Shown here: piece after piece, positions 255-41,883 of the stretch
Numbering within the stretch: position 1 is the first letter of the stretch
Layout of the letters: the number at the start of each line of letters is the position of its first letter
Source of the DNA: a virus
Direction: 5' to 3' (one strand)
Virus record (IMG/VR): IMGVR_UViG_3300046492_000081
Length of the DNA: 41,883 nucleotides
Notes under the pieces: generated by a model
What the model was told of the DNA's origin: nothing
Databases searched by the model: none
The model's input: only the letters and a program-made list of their open reading frames with translations
Made by a program: the position numbers and the translations under genes

Positions 255-272
255 TCTAGTGAGTCGAAGGCC
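255..272 (-). promoter_or_regulatory. Phage promoter-like motif, copy 1 (variant GGCCTTCGACTCACTAGA), upstream of the exonuclease gene
   Basis: Matches the 12-copy family. It sits 38 nt upstream of ATG 224 in gene orientation. Confidence 0.5.
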
Positions 273-738: not shown

Positions 739-755
739 CTAGGGAGTCGAATGCC
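739..755 (-). promoter_or_regulatory. Phage promoter-like motif, copy 2
   Basis: GGCATTCGACTCCCTAG in gene sense, with the ATG at 728 beginning 17 nt after TTCGAC. Confidence 0.55.
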
Positions 756-834: not shown

Positions 835-2169
835 TTACAGCGTGGCGGCAATCATGGCCGTGATGGCCTTCTTGGCCTCTTCCAGCTTCTTGCGCGCCGC
901 TTCCTTCGTGGCGTCCGTGGCGTTCTCGAAGTCATCCGGGTTGCCAGTCCCAATGTCCTTGAGGAGCTTGTCAGCCAGCTTCGTCACGCGCTCATCCGGC
1001 GTGGTGGTGTCCGCCGTGGTCTCGCCAGCGCCCTCCCCTTCGCCTTCGCCGCCCTCACCGGCACCCTCACCGGCACCACCAGCGGCCTCAAGCTCCTTGG
1101 CCTTCTGCTTTTCCTGGTAGGCAAGGCGCTTGCGCTCAGACTGACCGATGGTCGACGTGCCGTACGCCTTAGCGACGAACTCAGACGCGGGGACATCTTC
1201 CGGCTTGCCCTCAAGCACCTTCGCCACCCGGGCCCGGCGCTCCGCTGCCTCTTCCGTGTCCTCATCCAGCGACCGAAGCCACGCGGCACGGACGTCAGAG
1301 CGGTAGTCCTGAACCGAGCGCGTCAGCTTCTTGAGCGCCTGCTCATTGTCCCAGGTGTGTTCGAAGCCCTCACCGGCCATCTTGATGAGCGCCGTGCCTG
1401 CCTTCTTGGCAGCGTCCGAAGCAACCATCAGGTCAGGGTTGTCATCCTTGTTGGGGATGCGAGTGACCATGTCGAAGGCGACGGCCGCAACTTCCATGGC
1501 CACGTTGGAAGCCTTGAGGTTCAGGCGGACGCCCTCAGCCAGCTTCTCAGCGCCCATGGCTGCAAGCTCCTGAGTGCCTTCGTACTGGTCCCACGCCTTC
1601 TGAACAACCACGCCCTCAGCCGCCTTCTTGGCAACCTCCTTGGCCTTCGGCTTCTCAACCAGGGTGGCGGCTTCGGCCCACTGGTTGCGCTTCTCCTTCT
1701 TGGCCTTGATGGAGTCCTTGCCGCTCAGCGCGCTGATGATGGTCTCCGTCTCCTCCTTCAACTCCGCCAGCCCCTCAACGTTCTCCGCCTCAGCCAGAGA
1801 CCGGGCACGCTCAATGTTGGCGTCAATCTGCTCAAGGGCAGCCTTGCCATCCTCCGTGTTGACGTCCAGCTTCGCGGCGGTCTTCTCAGCCATGGTCTCT
1901 CCCGTGTTTCCGTTGGTGTTGCTGACAGACGGAACATTAGCAGACTCCGGGGCGTCCGTGTCTGCCACTTCCGAATTTTCGTAGGTGGTCTCTTCGGCAG
2001 CCTTCGCCAGCGCCTTGAGGCAGTTCGCGCAGTTCACGTCACCGCGCACTTCCCGGTAGCCCTCAGCCGCGCGGTTGCCGCCACAGATGGGAAGGGACAT
2101 GTAACCCTGGTGCTTCCGGGCCGCGTGAATCTTGCCGGTCCTGAGCTGAATGTTGACCATGGTGTCCAT
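835..2169 (-). CDS. Hypothetical 444-aa acidic, helical protein with an N-terminal Cys-rich motif; possible nested in-frame isoform from ATG 1893
   Basis: ATG 2169 follows a GAAGGGGCGGGG SD. N-terminus has C..C...CxxC; there is a Gly/Glu/Ala low-complexity tract near the C-terminus. A second strong SD (GGGAGAG) precedes the in-frame ATG at 1893. Confidence 0.75.
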   Translation of the reverse strand: MDTMVNIQLRTGKIHAARKHQGYMSLPICGGNRAAEGYREVRGDVNCANCLKALAKAAEETTYENSEVADTDAPESANVPSVSNTNGNTGETMAEKTAAKLDVNTEDGKAALEQIDANIERARSLAEAENVEGLAELKEETETIISALSGKDSIKAKKEKRNQWAEAATLVEKPKAKEVAKKAAEGVVVQKAWDQYEGTQELAAMGAEKLAEGVRLNLKASNVAMEVAAVAFDMVTRIPNKDDNPDLMVASDAAKKAGTALIKMAGEGFEHTWDNEQALKKLTRSVQDYRSDVRAAWLRSLDEDTEEAAERRARVAKVLEGKPEDVPASEFVAKAYGTSTIGQSERKRLAYQEKQKAKELEAAGGAGEGAGEGGEGEGEGAGETTADTTTPDERVTKLADKLLKDIGTGNPDDFENATDATKEAARKKLEEAKKAITAMIAATL

Positions 2170-2835: not shown

Positions 2836-3393
2836 TCAGCGCTGTCTCACAAGGAGATCAGTCACCGTGTGCAGATCAAAGACGCTGCCGCCGTTGATCA
2901 GGGTCTCATCCGCCGGGAAGGCGTTCAGATCGTTCTCACTGTCGTGTGTGTCAGTGCTCACAAGGTCAGGGCGCTTGATGCGGACCAGGATGAAGCCAGC
3001 CGCCTTGAGCGCTTCGGCTTCGTTCCCGTACCGGCAGTCAGTCACCACAACCGGCATGTTCCATCCGTCGGCAGCGCTGACCTTCTCCATCAGCACGCGC
3101 ACCCAGAAGTCAGGGTCAAGCTCACGCACGGTCTGACCCATGTGTTGGAGCGTCCGGCGGACTTCCGGGTAATTCTCCTTCGCGTAGTCCCAACCAACGT
3201 CAGCAATCAGGGACTCAAGCCGGACGCTGACGCCATAGCCGGTAGGGATGTACGGATTGACTTGCAGCGCCATCCGCTTGAGCGGGTCAGCGAACGCAAG
3301 CCGGGTAAATGCCCAGCGCTGGACCAGCCGCAAACCGGCCGTGTCCTTTCCGCTACGGGCCTTACCGATAAAGGCAATGTTCTGGTAGCTCAT
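2836..3393 (-). CDS. Deoxynucleoside monophosphate kinase-like P-loop protein
   Basis: N-terminal Walker A motif IGKARSGKD. Size and layout are typical of phage dNMP kinases. ATG 3393 follows a GGAGAGAG SD. Confidence 0.65.
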   Translation of the reverse strand: MSYQNIAFIGKARSGKDTAGLRLVQRWAFTRLAFADPLKRMALQVNPYIPTGYGVSVRLESLIADVGWDYAKENYPEVRRTLQHMGQTVRELDPDFWVRVLMEKVSAADGWNMPVVVTDCRYGNEAEALKAAGFILVRIKRPDLVSTDTHDSENDLNAFPADETLINGGSVFDLHTVTDLLVRQR

Positions 3394-3398
3394 ATTCA

Positions 3399-3433
3399 CT
3401 CTCTCCGTCCGGGGATTGCCCTTCGGGAGAGAG
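3399..3433 (-). promoter_or_regulatory. Hairpin sequestering the SD of 2836..3393
   Basis: In mRNA sense, CUCUCUCC (3433-3426) pairs with the SD GGAGAGAG (3406-3399), enclosing a 19-nt loop. Confidence 0.4.
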
Positions 3434-3450
3434 TGAGTGAGTCGAATGCC
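3431..3450 (-). promoter_or_regulatory. Phage promoter-like motif, copy 3
   Basis: GGCATTCGACTCACTCACTC in gene sense; overlaps the stop codon of 3450..3638. Confidence 0.55.
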
Positions 3451-4735: not shown

Positions 4736-4786
4736 GGTTTTCCCTTCGATAGAAGACAGTCCCCCAGTAGTAACTAGGGAGTGGAA

Positions 4787-4814
4787 AGCCCCCGGGACCA
4801 GGTCCACGGGGGCT
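4787..4814 (-). terminator. GC-rich hairpin plus UUUCC tail between the tail genes and the lysis cassette
   Basis: AGCCCCCG...CGGGGGCT with an inner GGACC/GGTCC pairing. Confidence 0.45.
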
Positions 4815-4815
4815 A

Positions 4816-4840
4816 TCACTTACGGATTTTCGGAAGTGCC
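4816..4840. repeat. SD/anti-SD palindrome, copy e (imperfect)
   Basis: TCACTTACG GATTTT CGGAAGTGCC; touches the stop codon of 4840..5451. Confidence 0.7.
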
Positions 4841-9422: not shown

Positions 9423-9460
9423 GGGGTGACCACCTCCGGATTTTCGGAAGTGGCCACCCC
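9423..9460. repeat. SD/anti-SD palindrome, copy f (extended stem of about 17 bp)
   Basis: GGGGTGACCACCTCCG GATTTT CGGAAGTGGCCACCCC. Confidence 0.75.
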
Positions 9461-13388: not shown

Positions 13389-13416
13389 AGTCACCTCCGA
13401 AAAACCGGAGGTGGTC
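13389..13416. repeat. SD/anti-SD palindrome, copy g
   Basis: AGTCACCTCCG AAAAAC CGGAGGTGGTC. Confidence 0.75.
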
Positions 13417-16653: not shown

Positions 16654-16680
16654 GGTCACCTCCGAAAAACCGGAGGTGGT
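16654..16680. repeat. SD/anti-SD palindrome, copy h
   Basis: GGTCACCTCCG AAAAAC CGGAGGTGGT; touches the scaffold stop codon. Confidence 0.75.
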
Positions 16681-20391: not shown

Positions 20392-20416
20392 GCACCTACG
20401 GATTTTCGGAAGTGGT
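20392..20416. repeat. SD/anti-SD palindrome, copy i (imperfect)
   Basis: GCACCTACG GATTTT CGGAAGTGGT; touches the TerL stop codon. Confidence 0.7.
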
Positions 20417-23418: not shown

Positions 23419-23445
23419 GGTCACCTCCGAAAATCCGTAGGTGCC
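23419..23445. repeat. SD/anti-SD palindrome, copy j (the SD arm is the RBS of the HNH gene)
   Basis: GGTCACCTCCG AAAATC CGTAGGTGCC. Confidence 0.7.
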
Positions 23446-23450
23446 GATTG

Positions 23451-23522
23451 AGCCCCCTGGTGGATTCGAACCACCGCACCATGTTTACGAGACATGTGCT
23501 CTGCCCATTGAGCTAAGGGGGC
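23451..23522 (-). tRNA. tRNA-Thr (anticodon CGU)
   Basis: Hand-folded cloverleaf. 7-bp acceptor GCCCCCT/AGGGGGC, anticodon loop CTCGTAA, T-arm GGTGG-TTCGAAT-CCACC. Confidence 0.85.
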
Positions 23523-23526
23523 GAAG

Positions 23527-23607
23527 TCCGCTGGGAGGGATTCGAACCCCCACGCCGTAAGGCATCCGGGTCTAAGCCGGACGTGTCTTCCGTTCCACCA
23601 CCAGCGG
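23527..23607 (-). tRNA. tRNA-Leu (anticodon UAG), class II with a 13-nt variable arm
   Basis: Acceptor CCGCTGG/CCAGCGG, D-arm GTGG-AACGGAAG-ACAC, anticodon loop CTTAGAC, T-loop TTCGAAT. Confidence 0.8.
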
Positions 23608-23688
23608 GCACGCTGTGCGGTCTCCCCTTTAGCTCAGGGCTCCGTCTACACAGCGGCAGGGCAGGGCATTACCGGCAACGCCCCGCAG

Positions 23689-23761
23689 TAGGTCAGGTGG
23701 GACTTGAACCCACAGCATCCCGGTTAAGAGCCGGACACTCTACCAATTGAGCTACTGACCT
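23689..23761 (-). tRNA. tRNA-Lys (anticodon CUU)
   Basis: Acceptor AGGTCAG/CTGACCT, anticodon loop CTCTTAA, T-arm GTGGG-TTCAAGT-CCCAC. Confidence 0.85.
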
Positions 23762-23834
23762 AGGCGGCAAGGGAACCTCTATCACCCATTGCCAATGCGC
23801 ACCCTGAACCATTACTTACGTGCGCTTCCTATCG

Positions 23835-23907
23835 CTGTCCCGGCTGGATTCGAACCAGCAACCCCCGGGGTAACAACCCGGCGCTCTGCCCATTGAGCTA
23901 CGTGACA
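23835..23907 (-). tRNA. tRNA-Asn (anticodon GUU)
   Basis: Acceptor TGTCACG/CGGGACA with one A-G mismatch and a U1-A72 pair. Anticodon loop TTGTTAC. T-arm GCTGG-TTCGAAT-CCAGC. Confidence 0.8.
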
Positions 23908-24016
23908 TTGAGGGTTACTCGCCGCTCACTTTGCTTGTGACTAGCAAGCCAGTGTGAGCCGGTTTCACCCAGGGTGCTTATCGTCGGTCCGGTCAGGGAC
24001 CTATTGTGAGCACCAG

Positions 24017-24101
24017 TGCCGCATCAAGGATTTGAACCAAGGACTTCCCCTCACCCATGGGCCCATGGTGGGGGCGCTCTTCCAGACTGAGCTAATGCGG
24101 C
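24017..24101 (-). pseudogene. Degenerate tRNA-like element (85 nt) with an aberrant anticodon arm
   Basis: The 7-bp acceptor (GCCGCAT/ATGCGGC) and D-arm are perfect. The anticodon arm is replaced by a 28-nt hairpin around CCATGGGCCCATGG. The T-stem has two U-U mismatches. Confidence 0.55.
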
Positions 24102-24104
24102 AAG

Positions 24105-24178
24105 CGCTTCGTACCGGATTCGAACCGGTGACCTTCGCCTTGACAAGGCGCTGCCCTAAGCCACTAGGCCAACGAAGC
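24105..24178 (-). tRNA. tRNA-Asp (anticodon GUC)
   Basis: Acceptor GCTTCGT/ACGAAGC, anticodon loop TTGTCAA, T-arm ACCGG-TTCGAAT-CCGGT. Confidence 0.8.
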
Positions 24179-24309: not shown

Positions 24310-24327
24310 TCTAGTGAGTCGAATGCC
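24310..24327 (-). promoter_or_regulatory. Phage promoter-like motif, copy 4, about 130 nt upstream of the tRNA array and late operon
   Basis: GGCATTCGACTCACTAGA in gene sense. Confidence 0.55.
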
Positions 24328-24357
24328 AACGCGCCGGGGCCTGATCCTGGGGCGCTG

Positions 24358-24448
24358 TGTAGGAATGTAGGAAGTGAGTGAGGTCTCTGAATCCCTATAG
24401 AAACCCTTATGGATTATGAAGAGTGATACAGAAACTACATTCCTACAT
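24358..24448. repeat. 91-bp inverted-repeat regulatory cassette B; paralogue of 277-367
   Basis: Same 13-bp arms and the same 91-bp span. The cores align without gaps. Confidence 0.8.
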
Positions 24449-24820: not shown

Positions 24821-26389
24821 CTACATACGGGCTTCGGCTTCCACCTCATCATTCACGGCCATGAGCGCATCAGCCGCCGCATCAAAGAACGGGTCACGGA
24901 TCTCAAGCGATACCCGGCGTTCGTCCAGCGTGCGCCAACCCCCAGCGGTACCGGCCAAGACATCCAGCCGTGCCCCAGCGTTGGTCAGCATCTTCCGCCT
25001 TCCAGCCGTGTCCGCCTTGACCCACTTTTCATCGTAGGTGCGGCCGGTCCTGATCTCTTCCATGCGGGCTTCAACCTTCTCCCTGGTCTCAAGCTCCGCC
25101 AGCCGGGCGTCAAGGGCGTCAGCGCGGGTCTGCCACGCCTTCTGAGCGGCGCTGGACTTCTGCCGCCCCTGTTGCGCCTGGTGGGCTTCGAACTCCGCCA
25201 GAGTGGCGTCAATCTCCGGCTGTGGGTCATACCCGGGAATGATGCGCGTGGACGTGATCTCAAGCCCACCCAGGATGCGAAGGAACTCACGGGTCACGTA
25301 CTCATCAACCCAGTCAGCGCGGATGTTCATGGGGTGCTTGCAGACCACGCCCCGGGACGCTGCACCACAACGGTACGTAGGCCGCTGACCGGGCTTGCCC
25401 TCTTGCCGGTTCAGGTACATCTTGCTGCCGCACGAAGAGCAGTGAGCAATGCCGAACAGGAGCGCGTTGGTGTCCTTCCTGACTGAGCTTTTCACGGTCC
25501 GCTCATCCAGAAGGGCACCCACAGCATCAAACTCAGCGCGGGTAAGGATGGGCTCACGGGTGGCCATTACCGGCACACCTTCGCTGTCACGCACGGGGAG
25601 TTTGCCGCTGAGCTTCCAGCCGATCAGCGTTTCAGAGCGCATGATGCGCGTAATGGTGGTGGCATTCCATCCCGTCGGCTTCTTGACTTCCCGCCCCTTG
25701 AATGCGGACCAGTGGTCAGACGGGGAGGGGACGTTATCGGCATTCAGCGCGAACACAATTGCATTCGCTGTCTCGCCTTCAAGAAGCGCCTTGATGATGC
25801 GCTCAATGACCTTTACGGCGTCCGGGTCCTGAACCAGGGTCCAGCCGCCACCTTCGAGCGGGGCAGGCATGTAGCCGTACGGCGCACGGGAACCACGCCA
25901 GCGGTAAGCCATCATGCGCATTGCCGCCTGAGCGCCGATCACGCGTTCCCGGATGGAGTGGGCTTCCATCTGAGCCGCGAAGGCGAAGAGCGTGACCATG
26001 AGCTGTGACATGGGGTCCAGCGGGTTGCGGAAGTCCAGCACCAGGCGACCGCCGGGCCCCTCAGCGAAGACGATCATCTTCCGTTCGTCGCGTGCCCACT
26101 TCGCAAGCTCATGCATGTCATCCATGGACCGGATGGCACGGTCAAACCGCCAGAACACCAGGGCGTCAAAGTCATCCGGGCGACGAAGCCAGGCACCCAG
26201 CTCCGGGCGCTGGAAGGGTGTTGTCTTGCTTGCGCTGACTCCTAGGTCAACGGCCTTCCGGTCGGCAAGGTCAATGCCCAGTGCCCCGGCTGCCCCGTCG
26301 TTGGCGTTCTGCTGACGTTCAGGGCTGGTGGTCTCGTCAGTCAGTACGGACAGACGAAGGCAGGACACGCCCCGGAGGTGAGAGTTCAT
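24821..26389 (-). CDS. int: Large serine recombinase (Bxb1-type integrase)
   Basis: N-terminal catalytic motif LRLSVLTDETTSPERQ. Resolvase core, recombinase domain, Cys4 zinc ribbon (CSSCGSK...CGAASRGVVC) and a C-terminal coiled coil. Confidence 0.9.
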   Translation of the reverse strand: MNSHLRGVSCLRLSVLTDETTSPERQQNANDGAAGALGIDLADRKAVDLGVSASKTTPFQRPELGAWLRRPDDFDALVFWRFDRAIRSMDDMHELAKWARDERKMIVFAEGPGGRLVLDFRNPLDPMSQLMVTLFAFAAQMEAHSIRERVIGAQAAMRMMAYRWRGSRAPYGYMPAPLEGGGWTLVQDPDAVKVIERIIKALLEGETANAIVFALNADNVPSPSDHWSAFKGREVKKPTGWNATTITRIMRSETLIGWKLSGKLPVRDSEGVPVMATREPILTRAEFDAVGALLDERTVKSSVRKDTNALLFGIAHCSSCGSKMYLNRQEGKPGQRPTYRCGAASRGVVCKHPMNIRADWVDEYVTREFLRILGGLEITSTRIIPGYDPQPEIDATLAEFEAHQAQQGRQKSSAAQKAWQTRADALDARLAELETREKVEARMEEIRTGRTYDEKWVKADTAGRRKMLTNAGARLDVLAGTAGGWRTLDERRVSLEIRDPFFDAAADALMAVNDEVEAEARM

Positions 26390-26397
26390 AGGGCGTG

Positions 26398-26414
26398 GTG
26401 AGTGAGTCGAATGC
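26398..26414 (-). promoter_or_regulatory. Phage promoter-like motif, copy 5, 16 nt upstream of the int ATG with no SD
   Basis: GCATTCGACTCACTCAC-CACGCCCT-ATG. Confidence 0.5.
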
Positions 26415-29009: not shown

Positions 29010-29037
29010 AACCACTTACGGATTTTCGGAGGTGGTC
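29010..29037. repeat. SD/anti-SD palindrome, copy k
   Basis: AACCACTTACG GATTTT CGGAGGTGGTC. Followed in gene sense by the GGTGGGGC...GCCCCACC hairpin (28971-29003). Confidence 0.7.
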
Positions 29038-29911: not shown

Positions 29912-29938
29912 GTCACCTCCGGATTTTCGGAGGTGGTC
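29912..29938. repeat. SD/anti-SD palindrome, copy l (perfect)
   Basis: GTCACCTCCG GATTTT CGGAGGTGGTC. Confidence 0.75.
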
Positions 29939-31694: not shown

Positions 31695-31726
31695 GGGGCC
31701 ACCTCCGAAAATCCGGAGGTGACCCC
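31695..31726. repeat. SD/anti-SD palindrome, copy m (perfect, with extended GGGG/CCCC flanks)
   Basis: GGGGCCACCTCCG AAAATC CGGAGGTGACCCC. Confidence 0.75.
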
Positions 31727-32141: not shown

Positions 32142-32171
32142 CTTCGAAGTGGTGCTAGGGAGTCGAATGCC
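32142..32171 (-). promoter_or_regulatory. Phage promoter-like motif, copy 6 (full 30-nt form)
   Basis: GGCATTCGAC-N12-CTTCGAAG; overlaps the 3' end and stop codon of the HNH gene. Confidence 0.6.
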
Positions 32172-32418: not shown

Positions 32419-33345
32419 TTACTTGCGTCCACCACGGCCAAGGTTGATGGCGGCAGCCTCAGTGAGTTCCTTCGCCTCAACCTCATCCTTGGCAACGGCC
32501 TTGATGTACCGCTTCGCGAACGCCTTGTGACCCTTCACGCGGGCATCACGCGCCGGGATGATGTCCAGACCCAACGCGGCAGCCAGCCCGGGAAGGTCAC
32601 CAGCGTCCCCCGTGCCGTAGCACTGCACATCACCAATGCCGTACGAGAGACGAAGGGCGTTGGCCTGGTTGTCGCTCATGGTGGCAAGGATGGCGTTCAC
32701 AATGGCGTGCTTCTGCCGCCGCTCTTCGCTGGTGATGTCCTCAGCGGTGACCAGGTCATCCGGCACACCCAGGGAAGAGGCAAGCCCCTCAGCCAGGCTG
32801 TAAGACGCCTGGTAGTCCCCCTGAGACACGGAACCGGCAGACGGGCCATCCACGGTCACAGCCGGGGCGTCAAGGCTTGCAGCGCCCTGCCACGCCATCC
32901 GGGCTGCCTGTGCACGGTCCGCGCTGAGTCGACGTCCCTTCGGGGGCACGGTCTGAGCGAACTTCTCGGCAAGGTAGACATCCCCGTCAGCCTTCTCAAG
33001 CATGGACGCGAACACCTTCAAGGCGTCTTCGTCAGCGCCCTGGTTGCGGGCTTCCCGGACCTTGTCCTTGAGCGCGTTCTCAATGGTTGCCCACATGAAC
33101 GCGTAGAAGGCATCCACGGTGTCACCCTCGAAGCGGGGCAGGGCTTCGAACATGGCAAGCGCGCCGTCCTGCCGGAAGTCTTCCCGGAAGTCCTCAAAGC
33201 GCATCCCGTTCTGAGTCATGCGACGGGCGGCAGCGTCAGCCAGCTTCTCAATGCGGCCGGTCATGGCTTCGTTGACAGCCTCAAGCCCGGCAAAGCCGTT
33301 CGTCTGAGCGTCAGCGATCAGGGCAAGGGTCAGGGTCTCGGTCAT
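32419..33345 (-). CDS. ECF-like RNA polymerase sigma factor candidate (308 aa)
   Basis: Region-2-like DFRQDGALAMFEALPRFEGDTVDAFYAFMWATIENALKD. Region-4-like MSDNQANALRLSYGIG...LAAALGLD...ARDARVKGHKAF. ATG 33345 follows a GGAAGGAAA SD. Confidence 0.6.
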   Translation of the reverse strand: MTETLTLALIADAQTNGFAGLEAVNEAMTGRIEKLADAAARRMTQNGMRFEDFREDFRQDGALAMFEALPRFEGDTVDAFYAFMWATIENALKDKVREARNQGADEDALKVFASMLEKADGDVYLAEKFAQTVPPKGRRLSADRAQAARMAWQGAASLDAPAVTVDGPSAGSVSQGDYQASYSLAEGLASSLGVPDDLVTAEDITSEERRQKHAIVNAILATMSDNQANALRLSYGIGDVQCYGTGDAGDLPGLAAALGLDIIPARDARVKGHKAFAKRYIKAVAKDEVEAKELTEAAAINLGRGGRK

Positions 33346-33380
33346 GGCTGGTGTTTCCTTCCGGTTGCTCACTCGGGTTT

Positions 33381-33399
33381 GAGTGAGTGAGTCGAATGC
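33381..33399 (-). promoter_or_regulatory. Phage promoter-like motif, copy 7, upstream of the sigma gene
   Basis: GCATTCGACTCACTCACTC followed by the hairpin CTCACTC-N6-GAGTGAG. Confidence 0.55.
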
Positions 33400-33803
33400 T
33401 CGGAAGGGGCCTGACCGGGTACCGGATCTCATGTGACGTGGGGCACACCCTGTTTTAGGCATGGGGGTGCCGCAGTAGGTCACGTGGGAGACAGAGCGGG
33501 TTAGACCCCTTGAGCGGGGTTCCGCTTGTCCGAAGATCCGGCCGGGCGCTTCGGCTTTGCTGGTCCTGAGTACATACGTTTTTGCGTAGGTCCGCAACGC
33601 CGTTGCGCGCTGAACCAACTGCTAGACCTGGGGCCGGGCCGAACGGTTGCACGTCGATTCGAAGGCGTAACCAGGCTCATCCCTTGGATGTACCGGTTTG
33701 GCATATGCACGGGGTGCAAAGATCCTTCGTTACATAGGCAACGGTCCTTAGTTGCACCGTCAGGCAACCGACCTAAAGAATCTTGGAAACTTTGCCTCCG
33801 GTA

Positions 33804-33828
33804 CCACCTCCGAAAATCCGGAGGTGAC
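33804..33828. repeat. SD/anti-SD palindrome, copy n (perfect)
   Basis: CCACCTCCG AAAATC CGGAGGTGAC. Confidence 0.75.
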
Positions 33829-33877
33829 CGCCCGTGAACCAGCCAGCCACAGGCGGTCACCATGGGTGTGACCGGGG

Positions 33878-35805: not shown

Positions 35806-35836
35806 GGGCCACCTCCGAAAATCCGGAAGTGACCCC
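35806..35836. repeat. SD/anti-SD palindrome, copy o, between promoter copy 8 and the polymerase SD
   Basis: GGGCCACCTCCG AAAATC CGGAAGTGACCCC. Confidence 0.75.
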
Positions 35837-35854: not shown

Positions 35855-38290
35855 TCAGTCCTGAGCGAAGATGCCCGGACCCGTCTTCGAAGTGGCGCTA
35901 GGGAGTCGAATGCCTACCAGGGCCATCCCCTTAGCCGTACGCGTGCGAGTGATGCCGCGCTCTTCCATGGCCCCGTAGAACGCGCGACGGGTCCAACGCT
36001 CCTTGGCAGGCAGGTTCTCAGCCTCACACCAGTCAAGGTAAGCGTTGAACGCTTCGCCACCATCCATGCGGGCAGAGTCATCCGCCACCAGGACACCCGG
36101 GAAGAAACCCGCCAGCGCGTCACTGGTCTCCTTGTACTCCTTCGTGGCAGCGCTGATGCTGGCAGGGTCTTGCAGCCCGTCACGGAACCACTCAACAGCC
36201 CCACGGACAGCCCACGCGGCAATACCCTTCGCTTCGGCTTCCAGCTTCTTGTCAAGGCTGTAGTCCCGCTCATGCGGAGCAAAGAACCGGGTAAAGGGAA
36301 TCATCTTGACGCGTCGCCAGAGACCTTCGTCCTGACCCCGGAACTTCGGCTTATGGTTCGTCGCCAGCATGAGCAGAAACGAAGGCTTGAATTCGAAGAA
36401 CTCTTGCCGAAGGAACCGGGCGGCAATCATGTCCTTGCCCGTGACACGCTTGAGCACAGCCTCAGACATGGGCTTGCCGGACTCACCCTCAGACGCCATC
36501 ACCAGGCGGCTACCGCGCAAGGCGGCAATGTCGTTAGGGATGCCGCCATTCGCCTTCTCTTCGAACGTGGCAAAGGGCGTGGTCTTGCTGATGGTCCGGA
36601 ACACACTGGACAGCGTGTCAGTCAGGACACTCTTGCCGTTCGCACCCTTCCCCCACAGCACACAGAAACACTGCTCATCCGTGTAGCCCGTGATGCCGTA
36701 GCCAATGATGCGCTGCATGTACGGCACAAGGTCAGGGTTGTCCGGGAAGACCTCAGTCATGAACTGTTCCCAGCGGGGGCAGGTGGCAGCCGGGTCATAC
36801 TCGATGTCAAGGCAGTACGTCAACATGTCAGCCTTGTCATGCGCCCGGAGCTTCCCAGTGCGAAGGTTCACGGTGCCGTTGCGGAAGCTCAGAAGGTGCG
36901 GCCGGTTGTCGAAGTCAGACGCCTCAACGTAGACCGTGGGGACCGAACGAAGCTCAGTCATCAGGTCATTGATGCGCGTGGTCATGGTGAACCCACGGGC
37001 TTCCTTGACCTTGCCAGCCAGCACCAGGGCAGCGCCCATGCGGTGAATCTCCTGACGCACCTTGACCTCAGAACGGGACCAGGTACGGCCGTTCCACACG
37101 TAGAAACCCAGACCAGGCGCGAACTTGATACGGCCATCGGACCAGGCAACCAGCGCGTGAGCGTTCATGGCGTCCGTGTCGCCGTAGCGCTCAAGGAGAC
37201 CAGCCAGGATGCGGGCAGCCTCATTGCCCTGGTCCCGGCTGACAATGTCCGCCCCGGTCGCTTCGCTCAACTCTTCGCTGACGGCTTCCCGTTGGGCCTC
37301 TTCCGGCTTCGCTACCGGCTTCGCAGACTTCACGGCCTTGTGCAGAGCCAGCGCAAACGCCATGGGGGCAGACTCGCGCCACTCAGTCAGGTCCGTCTTC
37401 GGCCCCAGCTTCGGAATGGGCAGCGCGTAGACCGGGATGCCGTACGCCTTGAGCCCTTCGGCAAGCGCCATGTTGAAGCCCTGCCCGGCAGAGTCCACAT
37501 CACCACACGCAATGACCTGTGAGCCCTTGAGACCAGCGGCAAGCTCAGCCAGAAGGTCAGGGTTGGACACCAGGGCAGCGCCCCGGACCATCACCACGTC
37601 ATACCCCACGGAAACCGCTGTAAGCCCGTCTCCGGGCCCCTCAGTGACCAGGGTGACCCCGTAGCCGCCCTGACCCCGGAACACGCCGTACGGGGACCAG
37701 CGGAAGCCTTCCGGGTTGCGCAGAGACAGCCAACGCCCCGGGCACTCCCCCGTGATGTCACGCCCCTGCAAGCCACGCGGCATACCGACGAAGTCACACA
37801 GCGGAACAGTCACCCGGGGGAACGCCTTGAAGGAGCGCGTCAGGTACGGGAAGGGGTCATTCACATCCGGCCCGTCATACCCGATACCCAGTTCATACGC
37901 CGTGTCAGCGTCCATGCCGAAGCGGTCAGCAAGGTAGTCCCGGGCACGCTCCTGCCACTCCCCCTCTTCGGGCAGCCGGTCACGCGCGTCATCAACGTAG
38001 CCAGCAAGGGCGGCAGTCTGAGCAACACCCACAATGGCGGGCTTCTCCTTCGGGACCGTAGCGCCCTCACCATCAGCGTTGAACAGGTCCGGCCACGTCA
38101 GGCCAGCCGCCTTGACCACGTCACCCGTGGGGCAGCCGACACGGCACGTGATGCGGACCTTGTTGTCATCCCCACGCCAGATACGTAGCGACGGGTCAGA
38201 GTCTCCGTGCGACGGGCACAGGGTGATGTACCCGCCGTCTTCGTGCTCACTCACACCTTCGAAGTGGTCCAGCAACTCAACGAACAGCAC
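35855..38290 (-). CDS. Bifunctional DNA primase/helicase (CHC2 Zn-finger, Toprim and SF3/D5-type NTPase)
   Basis: CPSHGDSDPS...CRVGC, Toprim acidic motifs, Walker A GKGANGKS. GTG start at 38290 follows an AGGAAGG SD. Confidence 0.85.
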   Translation of the reverse strand: MLFVELLDHFEGVSEHEDGGYITLCPSHGDSDPSLRIWRGDDNKVRITCRVGCPTGDVVKAAGLTWPDLFNADGEGATVPKEKPAIVGVAQTAALAGYVDDARDRLPEEGEWQERARDYLADRFGMDADTAYELGIGYDGPDVNDPFPYLTRSFKAFPRVTVPLCDFVGMPRGLQGRDITGECPGRWLSLRNPEGFRWSPYGVFRGQGGYGVTLVTEGPGDGLTAVSVGYDVVMVRGAALVSNPDLLAELAAGLKGSQVIACGDVDSAGQGFNMALAEGLKAYGIPVYALPIPKLGPKTDLTEWRESAPMAFALALHKAVKSAKPVAKPEEAQREAVSEELSEATGADIVSRDQGNEAARILAGLLERYGDTDAMNAHALVAWSDGRIKFAPGLGFYVWNGRTWSRSEVKVRQEIHRMGAALVLAGKVKEARGFTMTTRINDLMTELRSVPTVYVEASDFDNRPHLLSFRNGTVNLRTGKLRAHDKADMLTYCLDIEYDPAATCPRWEQFMTEVFPDNPDLVPYMQRIIGYGITGYTDEQCFCVLWGKGANGKSVLTDTLSSVFRTISKTTPFATFEEKANGGIPNDIAALRGSRLVMASEGESGKPMSEAVLKRVTGKDMIAARFLRQEFFEFKPSFLLMLATNHKPKFRGQDEGLWRRVKMIPFTRFFAPHERDYSLDKKLEAEAKGIAAWAVRGAVEWFRDGLQDPASISAATKEYKETSDALAGFFPGVLVADDSARMDGGEAFNAYLDWCEAENLPAKERWTRRAFYGAMEERGITRTRTAKGMALVGIRLPSATSKTGPGIFAQD
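35885..35914 (-). promoter_or_regulatory. Phage promoter-like motif, copy 8 (full 30-nt form), inside the 3' end of the primase gene
   Basis: GGCATTCGAC-N12-CTTCGAAG. Confidence 0.6.
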
Positions 38291-38309: not shown

Positions 38310-38339
38310 CTTCGAAGGGATGTGAGTGAGTCGAATGCC
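38310..38339 (-). promoter_or_regulatory. Phage promoter-like motif, copy 9 (full 30-nt form), upstream of the primase gene
   Basis: GGCATTCGAC-N12-CTTCGAAG, then 9 nt to the SD. Confidence 0.6.
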
Positions 38340-39074: not shown

Positions 39075-39388
39075 TCGCCCACCTCCGGATTTTCGGAAGT
39101 GACCTCAACGAAGTTCGGAGTCACCAGGCGCACATGTTCCGTGGTAATCCACTGAGCGGCAGCCGTCTTGCGCTTCACAAAGCCGGACTCAATCCCAGTG
39201 GGCTGAACCTTGAGCACGGGCACCAACACAGCGCCTACGCCCTCAACTTGAGCCTGTTTGGCAGTGGCCTCAAGGACCACAGCGTCAGCCATCCTGACCC
39301 GGTTCCCCTGACGTGCCGAGTAGGCCACCAGGTCCCCGGGGTGTAGTTCGTTGCCCGCGTAATCCGTGACAACGCCACGCTTAGCCAT
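39071..39388 (-). CDS. Hypothetical 105-aa protein
   Basis: TAGGAGG SD. The C-terminal codons read through palindrome p. Confidence 0.6.
   Translation of the reverse strand: MAKRGVVTDYAGNELHPGDLVAYSARQGNRVRMADAVVLEATAKQAQVEGVGAVLVPVLKVQPTGIESGFVKRKTAAAQWITTEHVRLVTPNFVEVTSENPEVGE
39078..39104. repeat. SD/anti-SD palindrome, copy p (inside the coding 3' end; its SD arm is the RBS of the next gene)
   Basis: CCCACCTCCG GATTTT CGGAAGTGACC. Confidence 0.75.
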
Positions 39389-40685: not shown

Positions 40686-40715
40686 CTTCGAAGCTGGTCT
40701 AGGGGGTCGAATGCC
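40686..40715 (-). promoter_or_regulatory. Phage promoter-like motif, copy 10 (full 30-nt form)
   Basis: GGCATTCGACCCCCTAGACCAGCTTCGAAG. Confidence 0.6.
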
Positions 40716-40753: not shown

Positions 40754-40771
40754 TCTAGAGAGTCGAATGCC
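40754..40771 (-). promoter_or_regulatory. Phage promoter-like motif, copy 11 (tandem with copy 10, 56 bp apart)
   Basis: GGCATTCGACTCTCTAGA. Confidence 0.5.
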
Positions 40772-41090: not shown

Positions 41091-41120
41091 CTTCGAAGCT
41101 GGTCTAGGGGGTCGAATGCC
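41091..41120 (-). promoter_or_regulatory. Phage promoter-like motif, copy 12 (full 30-nt form; identical to copy 10)
   Basis: GGCATTCGACCCCCTAGACCAGCTTCGAAG; overlaps the exonuclease stop codon. Confidence 0.6.
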
Positions 41121-41883
41121 TAGCCCCGTCGCTCCGTCCCCGTGGTGATGAGCTTGCTACCGGCCAGCGGCTTCCCCAGAACCTTCCGGCTGCCCTCACG
41201 CTCCCAATCAACCGTCTTGCGAAGGTGCAGGAACACCCCGAAGGCAGCGCGCATCTCAGGGGCGTAGACGGGCACCAGGGACCAGCCGTCAGGGGTCACG
41301 TGAAGCACCACAGCGCCATCAAACGCGGGCATGGGCTCTTCGGTACCGTCCGGGTCAATGATGCGGTCAGCGAAGGCGTAAGCGGCCATCTGCAAGGCCA
41401 CGGAAGGCCACACGGACTTAGACGTCTTCCAGTCGGCAATCACGTCCACCCACACGGCGTTACCGCTGACGTTGTCCGGGTCCAGCGCCCACGTGCCATC
41501 GTCGTTGAGCACCACGCGCAACCGTAGCCACGCGTCGAATGAACCGGCGTACTGATAGGTGTCGGACCAGGCCACGTCTTCGGCACGCACAAGGACCGGC
41601 TTCACGGTGGCCATGAACTCAGCGAACATGGCGTGATACGGGACCATGTCCGGGTGCAACCGGCCGATTCGCTGCCCACGCATCATGCGCTCAAACAGGT
41701 CATGGGCCTTGCTGCCAATCTTGCTGCGGTCATTGGTGTACCGCCACGCTGCCCCGGCAACCCACTTCTTAGCGCCGCCCCGGTCCCGGTCCGCCATGCG
41801 CTGTAGGTAGTCAATGCTGTCTAGGGCAAGCTCAGCCGCCATGTTCGCGTACCAACGCGTCAGGAACTTCTTAGGAAGCACGT
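41120..41883 (-). CDS. PD-(D/E)XK (Cas4/RecB-like) exonuclease, C-terminal 254 codons; the N-terminus continues at 128..224 across the junction
   Basis: D...DVIADWKTSK and QMAAY motifs typical of RecB/Cas4-family nucleases. Confidence 0.8.
   Translation of the reverse strand, partial: VLPKKFLTRWYANMAAELALDSIDYLQRMADRDRGGAKKWVAGAAWRYTNDRSKIGSKAHDLFERMMRGQRIGRLHPDMVPYHAMFAEFMATVKPVLVRAEDVAWSDTYQYAGSFDAWLRLRVVLNDDGTWALDPDNVSGNAVWVDVIADWKTSKSVWPSVALQMAAYAFADRIIDPDGTEEPMPAFDGAVVLHVTPDGWSLVPVYAPEMRAAFGVFLHLRKTVDWEREGSRKVLGKPLAGSKLITTGTERRG

Follow-up and report, generated by a model that had tools for sequence, protein, structure and literature searches.

The 41,883-nt stretch of viral DNA in IMG/VR record IMGVR_UViG_3300046492_000081 (the window below) is a nearly complete genome of a temperate Streptomyces siphophage of the phiC31-like kind, and its gene at 32419–33345 on the minus strand encodes a 308-residue protein that almost certainly belongs to the sigma-70 family. 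By sequence similarity the protein is the orthologue of gp42 of Streptomyces phage Rowa and a homologue of phiC31 gp12. We give a probability of about two in three to the full model, in which a sigma factor of this gp12 family fires some 13 phage promoters, among them its own. An earlier note, made from the bare sequence, had proposed a phage sigma factor of the extracytoplasmic function (ECF) kind that feeds back on its own promoter; the sigma factor and the loop are retained here and the ECF label is not.

Identity and domain layout of the sigma factor

The gene and its translation signal are located as follows.

32419–33345, minus strand: sigma-factor gene, 308 aa (open reading frame, profiles, alignment and fold)
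33356–33362, minus strand: ribosome-binding site GGAAGGA, read from the sequence and kept in relatives

The open reading frame is real, with an ATG start preceded 10 nt upstream by GGAAGGA, and the N-terminus MTETLTL is common to homologues of equal length. The two sigma-like segments that had been pointed out earlier are both present (residues ~55–93 and ~225–275), and the likeness to region 2 is borne out by Pfam Sigma70_r2 (PF04542), which matches residues 38–100 (E=1.3e-7; 31.8 bits, the gathering score being 24) and is detected in 54 of 55 family members. The protein also matches PHROG 15865 "RNA polymerase sigma factor" with E=1.3e-108. NCBIfam TIGR02937 scores just below its cut-off in the window protein (42.8 versus 42.9 bits) and is matched at E≤0.001 by 52 of the 55 family members; all other NCBIfam matches of the window protein are likewise to sigma families. 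A profile of the 55 homologues, run against the sequences in PDB, found nothing but sigma factors at E<0.1, and sigma factors in all cases but one up to E=1. For region 2 the best of these were the 256-aa sigma chain of the S. aureus SigB-dependent open complex (8x6g_H) and FliA, and residues 174–274 matched region 3.2–4 of SigA/RpoD with E values of 0.005–0.05. The signature D-x-x-Q-x-G...R-F of regions 2.1–2.2, which serves in core-polymerase binding, is present, and Q59, R71 and F72 are invariant or nearly so in the family alignment. That the window protein would bind the core polymerase and direct initiation at specific promoters is supported indirectly, by the co-variation of sigma domains and motif halves described below.

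The AlphaFold model of the protein (pLDDT 83) leads to the same family. Foldseek gave 28 matches in PDB at E≤0.001, every one a sigma factor or a polymerase complex containing one, aligned over about 280–310 columns, with B. subtilis SigB (9a50_A, E=9e-6) at the top and S. aureus SigB (8x6g_H) also present, and among phage and viral models (BFVD) the matches over about 300 columns were phage sigma factors only. Where the earlier note had been prepared to give up its proposal for want of a sigma profile match, or for an unrelated fold, Sigma70_r2 is found above its cut-off and the fold matches sigma factors only.

Domain 2 is found at residues ~18–100 and is followed at ~104–160 by a three-helix middle domain, which is the most conserved part of the family and contains the stretch ...QTVPPKGRRLSADRAxAARLAWQG..SLD, with P135, R139, A145, A147, A148 and R149 invariant. 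Next come a linker of low confidence in the AlphaFold model (~160–200), a helix-turn-helix resembling domain 4 at ~201–285 (four helices, 201–284 in the model) and a C-terminal helix. Order and length of the three domains are conserved among more than 140 homologues. What had been described as an unusually long linker of about 130 aa is thus no linker, the ~125 aa between regions 2 and 4 holding the conserved three-helix domain. As modelled, this domain takes the place of sigma domain 3; it gives no sigma match when taken alone, so that its homology to domain 3 is read from its position and from full-length alignments. The earlier assignment of region 4 holds in part: the fold and the family profile agree on it, but no Pfam region 4 model matches the window protein, and its middle and C-terminal segments, searched separately against Pfam, gave no match either. 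Among the 55 family members, Sigma70_r4 or r4_2 matches are seen in 2 + 2. As far as the model tells, the layout is the three-domain layout of group 1–3 sigma factors, and the full-length fold matches are SigB (the best), SigA and RpoS, not ECF sigma factors. With the group 3 subfamily profiles the protein scores 14.2 bits against a cut-off of 234 (TIGR02980, SigBFG) and 14 against 190 (TIGR02479, FliA_WhiG), and it stays far below all NCBIfam subfamily cut-offs.

A strand-specific motif in the phage genome

The 19-mer GCATTCGACTCACTCACTC, which the earlier note had placed in front of the sigma gene, is found exactly there (33381–33399, minus strand). An identical copy is present at 3431–3449 and two copies with two mismatches occur elsewhere, with 0.01 expected by chance. 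The motif has about 13 copies in the window, all of them on the gene strand, with the consensus GGCATTCGACTCmCT, or GGCATT-CGACTC-(A/C)CT(A/C).. when divided into its parts. They precede the genes for primase, polA, sigma, integrase, dNMP kinase, exonuclease and lysin (a degenerate copy), several small genes and the tRNA/late operon. The information is concentrated in one contiguous block of 17–18 bp, and no conserved block is found farther upstream of the motif.

33381–33400, minus strand: the sigma gene's own copy, aGCATT-CGAC-TCACTCACTC, with CGAC at 33394–33391; inferred to span -26 to -7; a variant lies at the same place in most of ~50 loci
41106–41119, minus strand: copy after the exonuclease gene, before a small open reading frame
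40757–40770, minus strand: first copy of a tandem pair 56 nt apart, before a gp32-like gene
40701–40714, minus strand: second copy of the tandem pair
38325–38338, minus strand: copy before the primase/helicase gene
35900–35913, minus strand: copy before polA, within the 3' end of the primase gene
32157–32170, minus strand: copy before the small gene that follows the HNH gene, within the 3' end of the latter
26401–26414, minus strand: copy before the serine-integrase gene, whose ATG (26389) lies exactly 16 nt after CGAC
24313–24326, minus strand: copy before six tRNA genes and the terminase/structural (late) operon
4776–4789, minus strand: degenerate copy GCTTTCCACTCCCT before the lysin gene, kept in Rowa
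3436–3449, minus strand: copy before the dNMP kinase gene, with the 19-mer identical to that of the sigma copy
741–754, minus strand: copy behind the repressor gene; its CGAC is followed 17 nt later by the ATG of the next gene
258–271, minus strand: copy before the exonuclease gene

Phage Rowa carries the motif at the same sites, and the copies inside the 3' ends of the primase and HNH genes are both kept there, indicating that the motif is maintained against coding constraints. The tandem pair before the gp32-like gene is also found in Rowa. Related variants are GGGTTGC-CGACTC-CCTTAC in phiC31, GTCAC-CGACTC-CCTTAC in Vash and CTTTAC-CnACTC-ACTCAC in Shaeky. A lineage-specific variant lies 40–60 nt before the start of the sigma gene in most of ~50 related loci, so the motif that had been seen directly before this gene in one genome is a property of the family.

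The core CGACTCACTA, present at 33385–33394 and in other copies (e.g. 24313–24326 and 258–271), is identical to 10 consecutive bases of the T7 class III promoter, TAATACGACTCACTATAG. This identity is most likely a coincidence. A T7-like polymerase system was considered and rejected, there being no such gene, and the primase consists of Toprim and D5_N domains. The motif was also considered as a repressor operator, but a separate 22-bp inverted repeat, described below, fits that role by analogy with phiC31.

Two kinds of repeat were observed beside motif copies. At the dNMP kinase copy (3393–3449, minus strand) the 3' part of the motif is complementary to the ribosome-binding site by way of a 10-bp inverted repeat, CACTCTCTCC/GGAGAGAGTG. 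A direct repeat, TTCCTACATTCCTACAC, is located at ~278–294 and ~24357–24373 (minus strand), just upstream of the exonuclease and tRNA/late copies, and similar direct repeats, CTTCCTACACTTCTACAC, are found in Rowa.

Co-variation of sigma domains and motif halves

The sigma genes of the related loci are mosaic (L028–L030, L061–L063, L035 and L046). In L028, L061 and L063 domains 2 and 3 are 84–95% identical and the C-terminal domains are of three kinds with 39–46% identity, which points to recombination at the domain boundary. These three loci have the motif 3' part CGACTCnACAG in common, whereas the 5' flank is GCGTT in L028 (in both its copies) versus GCTAAC in L061 and GGTAAC in L063, the last two being one base apart. 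L063 and L046, which have the same C-terminal type, both carry the flank GGTAAC, but have different domains 2 and different motif 3' parts (GACAGAG versus GCTAGAG).

The same pattern was seen in partial Mantel tests over 42 loci with the neighbouring polA as control, tests that overstate significance for related sequences. The 5' flank correlated with domain 4 when domain 2 was given (r=0.47, p=0.0005) and when polA was given (r=0.45, p=0.0005), and not significantly with domain 2 when domain 4 was given (r=0.02). The 3' flank correlated with domain 2 given polA (r=0.44, p=0.0005), while polA given the sigma domain reached r=0.06–0.12. Although the motif copy adjoins the gene at its 5' end, the motif flank tracks a domain encoded at the 3' end, and simple linkage is therefore no explanation. 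At the level of sequence, the co-variation supports both recognition of the motif by the sigma factor and autoregulation, and the positive feedback loop suggested earlier is plausible, since the motif precedes the sigma gene throughout the family and protein and motif co-vary.

Probable transcription start and promoter geometry

The triplet GAR shows a peak exactly 16 nt after CGAC, in 18 of 37 lineages and 22 of 50 genome copies, with counts of 0–8 at other offsets. At the corresponding position the copies in the window have G in 11 of 13 cases and A in one of 13, with a pyrimidine before it in 12 of 13. A scan for start codons downstream of CGAC, made with the strict motif core, found none at 19–22 nt, isolated ones from 23 nt on and the main mode at 35–47 nt. 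Three long open reading frames have their ATG exactly at the inferred start, namely the integrase genes of the window and of Vash (in the latter it is an in-frame upstream ATG) and Rowa gp27; the gp27-like gene of the window starts one base later. From the sequences, +1 is most likely the purine at the 17th nucleotide after CGAC, which for the sigma gene gives the following features.

33374, minus strand: putative transcription start G, followed by a 29-nt 5' untranslated region (from the GAR peak, the start codons and the window copies)
33368–33387, minus strand: inverted repeat CTCACTC-aaaccc-GAGTGAG, reaching from the motif's 3' part into the first bases of the putative transcript

The integrase ATG coincides with the putative start of the copy at 26401–26414, indicating a leaderless mRNA, and the arrangement in Vash is the same. 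Leaderless mRNAs are common in Streptomyces. With a start 17 nt after CGAC the conserved block would extend from about -26 to -7 and the promoter would have no -35 element. The -10-like part of the motif reads TAGACC, TAGGGC, CAGAGC, TCACTC or TTACCC. The flank and CGAC were also tried as a -35 region with GAR as the -10 region. This restores the canonical spacing, but three real start codons then fall inside the promoter, and in several lineages the transcripts are stripped of their ribosome-binding sites. The single block is preferred, although it leaves the placement of the C-terminal domain unexplained.

The complementarity between the motif and the start is kept with other arms: GCTCTC/GAGAGC, CTCGCTC/GAGCGAG, GGCTCACC/GGTGAGCC, GACTCCCT/AGGGAGTC and CGACTTC/GAAGTCG. 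In 15 of 50 loci it differs from shuffled sequences at p≤0.05. The inverted repeat could act as a hairpin in read-through RNA, by occlusion of the ribosome-binding site (the Vash type), or as an element at the DNA level.

The leader between polA and the sigma gene

The non-coding leader of roughly 530 bp described in the earlier note measures 532 bp, from the polA stop (33878) to the sigma ATG (33345).

33346–33877, minus strand: non-coding leader, 532 bp; no family match, and the gap is kept in most of 66 loci
33805–33826, unstranded: perfect 22-bp inverted repeat CACCTCCGAAAATCCGGAGGTG, which lies 52 nt beyond the polA stop; candidate c-repressor operator and/or terminator hairpin
33656–33668, minus strand: ACGCCTTCGAATC, the most conserved block of the leader (alignment), with 9 of 11 bases equal to the motif core
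33572–33591, minus strand: degenerate second copy of the repeat, ACCTACGCAAAAACGTATGT (alignment), flanked in relatives by TTGACC ... T.TACT
33422–33555, minus strand: conserved, probably structured leader RNA with the helices GCCGAAG/CTTCGG(C), CCGGATCT/AGATCCGG (long-range), GGCA/TGCC and TGTG/CACA
883–2157, minus strand: phiC31-type repressor c gene outside the leader (Pfam Phage_Repressor_c, E=2.3e-69)

Open reading frames in the leader match no protein family, and its alignment with Rowa contains frame-breaking indels. The length of the leader and several blocks in it are conserved, the 3' third more so than coding sequence. The 22-bp inverted repeat, CACCTCCG-AAAATC-CGGAGGTG, is present in 16 copies in the window, in both orientations, where 0 are expected.

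755–776, 1966–1987, 2241–2262, 2759–2780, 4817–4838, 9431–9452, 13392–13413, 16657–16678: copies of the repeat
20393–20414, 23422–23443, 29013–29034, 29914–29935, 31700–31721, 33805–33826, 35810–35831, 39080–39101: further copies

By analogy, the repeat is the likely counterpart of the conserved inverted repeats that repressor c binds in phiC31, presumably as its operators, and the c repressor of the window would be the likely reader of the copies listed. Many copies lie at gene ends and may therefore also serve as terminators. Two relatives have a phiC31-type repeat at the same position of the leader, and the phiC31 leader holds two copies of phiC31's own repeat. With two operator-like repeats in the leader, one of them degenerate, something regulated by the repressor is likely located there. 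The block ACGCCTTCGAATC could, from its sequence, be a variant or a decoy site of the motif. As to the leader RNA, one pair of a helix shows CG/AU/UA covariation and relative L012 has the compensatory pair CCGGAACT/AGTTCCGG, but RNAalifold gave modest covariation overall (2 of 26 pairs), and an Rfam search of the leader gave no match.

Proposed mechanism and alternative explanations

According to the full model, the phage sigma factor would replace the host sigma factor on the Streptomyces core RNA polymerase and direct it to the ~13 promoters with the block GGCATT-CGACTC-mCTAGACC. It is the middle domain, equally invariant, that would read the invariant core CGACTC (about -20 to -15), a pairing suggested by their parallel invariance, and domain 2 that would read the lineage-specific 3' part, in the -10 region. 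The first sigma molecules may come from read-through or from a start within the operator-guarded 532-bp leader, after which the factor should amplify its own synthesis from its own motif copy, leading to a switch-like commitment to lysis. In a lysogen the repressor would hold the trigger off, which would tie the loop to the decision between lysis and lysogeny.

A more specific version, tentative and on balance doubtful, can be proposed for the promoter itself. It would be a compact contiguous promoter (-26 to -7) read in a non-canonical way, the middle domain reading CGACTC and the C-terminal module the adjacent five to six upstream bases, roughly one helical turn nearer to the start than -35 elements are known to lie. 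Modules could be exchanged between phages, giving naturally orthogonal pairs of sigma factor and promoter, and all this, together with the operator-bearing structured leader and the self-promoter, would form the switch that activates phiC31-type lytic promoters.

Several observations weigh against the full model. A contiguous block lacking a -35 element is atypical for a sigma factor with an intact domain 4, and the flank that co-varies with domain 4 (-26 to -21) lies ~9–10 bp, or about one helical turn, too near the start compared with a canonical -35. Region 4 is detected only weakly by sequence, and for the isolated middle domain neither sequence nor fold revealed a similarity to sigma domain 3: its profile matched no sigma factor among the PDB sequences, and its separate AlphaFold model (pLDDT 72) found nothing significant in PDB by Foldseek. 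The number of independent swap events is small, and the Mantel tests overstate significance. No host-type promoter of the sigma-70 consensus that could start the loop was found in the leaders of the window, Rowa, a third relative and phiC31, and the host-recognised promoter suggested for the leader in the earlier note stays a candidate. Searches of the open full-text literature gave nothing on the function of phiC31 gp12, on early promoters or on Rowa, and no functional study of any other family member, and GenBank entries AJ006589 and X76288 have no promoter or transcript features annotated.

The strongest competitor, which we regard as unlikely, is that the protein is a genuine sigma-family member controlling other genes, and that the motif is read by another factor, for instance the host housekeeping holoenzyme, alone or helped by a phage activator. 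The -12 to -7 part of many (type-A) copies, TAGACC or TAGGGC, is near the -10 consensus TAnnnT of the Streptomyces host, and both the missing -35 element and the non-canonical position of the flank correlated with domain 4 would suit such a reader; moreover, some promoter must act before any phage sigma factor exists. Yet the two halves of the motif co-vary with the sigma domains better than with polA and the domain swaps agree with this, the motif stands before the sigma gene across the family, and it is the only other abundant strand-specific element in these genomes. The early promoters of phiC31 were also, reportedly, found inactive in uninfected cells by Ingham et al. in 1993.

It is very unlikely that the protein is a sigma mimic without a role in initiation, be it a decoy on the core polymerase that shuts off the host or a plain helix-turn-helix DNA-binding regulator. 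Some homologues are annotated only as "DNA binding protein" and sequence searches hardly pick up regions 3 and 4, but the melting and recognition segment of region 2 is retained, all three domains persist throughout the homologues, and there is co-variation between domain 2 and the motif's -10-like part, which would be unexpected for a decoy. Scarcely credible, finally, is the ECF (group 4) sigma factor with two domains and a long linker: TIGR02937 is named "sigma70-ECF" and an autoregulated promoter is typical of ECF sigma factors, but that model is a general one for regions 2 and 4 whose match ends before the helix-turn-helix, the residues supposed to form the linker are three helices and the best conserved of the family, the top full-length fold matches are three-domain sigma factors, and no anti-sigma gene lies next to the sigma gene, a cognate one in the operon being usual, if not universal, for ECF sigma factors.

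Genome context and related phages

The closest deposited relative of the window is Streptomyces phage Rowa (Rowavirus), with ~80% nucleotide identity, relative to which the window is reverse-complemented and circularly permuted. All genes are on the minus strand of the window. The exonuclease gene is split over the window ends (1–228 and 41123–41883, minus strand); it runs off the start and resumes at the end, so that the window represents the phage genome assembled in a circularly permuted form. The genes come in the order dNMP kinase, repressor, exonuclease, primase/helicase, DNA polymerase I, long gap, sigma gene, HNH, ThyX, dCMP deaminase, integrase, tRNAs, terminase and structural genes, in agreement with the phiC31 group. 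The gene directly downstream of the sigma gene encodes an HNH endonuclease, and the small open reading frames after it match no family. A gene for a single-subunit RNA polymerase is not found in the window genome.

The large serine integrase (24821–26389, minus strand) has Resolvase, Recombinase and Zn_ribbon_recom domains. It gave no tblastn match to the Rowa integrase, and the integration module has thus apparently been exchanged. Six tRNA genes (23450–24178, minus strand), for Thr-cgt, Leu-tag, Lys-ctt, Asn-gtt, Gly-acc and Asp-gtc, are placed between the motif copy at 24313–24326 and the terminase genes, and form a set unlike that of Rowa.

Nearly all of the homologues of the sigma protein come from Streptomyces phages and prophages. 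Matches by tblastn are Rowa gp42 (78% identity), Vash, Shaeky, TG1, phiBT1 gp12, phiC31 gp12, AbbeyMikolon and Attoomi. RefSeq already gives most of these, Rowa gp42 and phiC31 gp12 among them, the name "RNA polymerase sigma factor". The gene is accordingly a member of an annotated family and less new than the earlier note assumed. In most of 66 IMG/VR loci polA is followed by a gap of 290–536 nt, mostly 415–536 nt, and by the sigma gene.

Within the phiC31 gp12 family (PHROG 15865), identity to the window protein over the full length is 78% for Rowa gp42 and 36% for TG1, and ~50% over the N-terminal half for gp12 of phiC31 and phiBT1. The family shares the gene order primase, polA, long non-coding gap and sigma, and the phiC31 group has in common with the window the c-type repressor and inverted-repeat operators of the same kind. 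Motifs with the core CGACTC, one copy of which precedes the sigma gene itself, are found in both phiC31 and the window. They differ in the size of the sigma protein, 308 aa in the window against ~390 aa in the phiC31 type, which has an insertion of ~85 aa after the middle domain, in the motif flanks (GGCATT...CTAGACC versus GGTTGC...CCTTAC) and in the operator-like repeat (CACCTCCGAAAATCCGGAGGTG versus CCTACTCACGTGAGTAGG).

Comparison with other systems

It has been established since the early 1990s that phiC31, the model temperate phage of Streptomyces, has early promoters which do not resemble those of the host and work only in infected cells. A search of the open literature turned up no account of the factor reading these promoters. 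If the gp12 family were that factor, direct tests of the lytic switch would become possible in a large group of phages and prophages of Streptomyces. If the model is right, the lineage-specific pairs of sigma factor and promoter, with their apparently modular specificity, might be used as orthogonal expression tools in Streptomyces, and the compact promoter geometry would be of interest for the mechanism of transcription. For annotation the result is routine, a sigma factor being already named in related RefSeq records, and the label ECF should be avoided for the protein. Possible novelties are the comparative evidence linking the family to conserved lytic promoters and the unusual geometry of these promoters.

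The cellular group 3 sigma factors (SigB/SigF/FliA/WhiG) are similar in size and in the order of the three domains, and SigB is the best structural match. Their promoters are, however, bipartite with -35 and -10 regions, as opposed to the single block proposed here, and the middle domain of the window protein is not recognisable as their domain 3. Phage sigma factors such as T4 gp55 (late promoter TATAAATA), phiEco32 gp36 and SPO1 gp28/gp34 redirect the host core polymerase to phage promoters, and the putative single block without a -35 element resembles the T4 late and phiEco32 cases. No sequence relation to these phage factors is detectable (PHROG 234 "late sigma", E=0.23). In contrast to them, the window sigma keeps a domain 4-like helix-turn-helix that apparently co-varies with the promoter, and the window phage differs from the T4, phiEco32 and SPO1 systems in being temperate and in having its motif before early-type genes, the integrase gene and the late operon alike. 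T7-type promoters are likewise a contiguous phage-specific block of ~20 bp repeated before operons, but the start lies 9 nt after CGAC in T7 as against a putative 17 nt in the window, which has no gene for a single-subunit polymerase.

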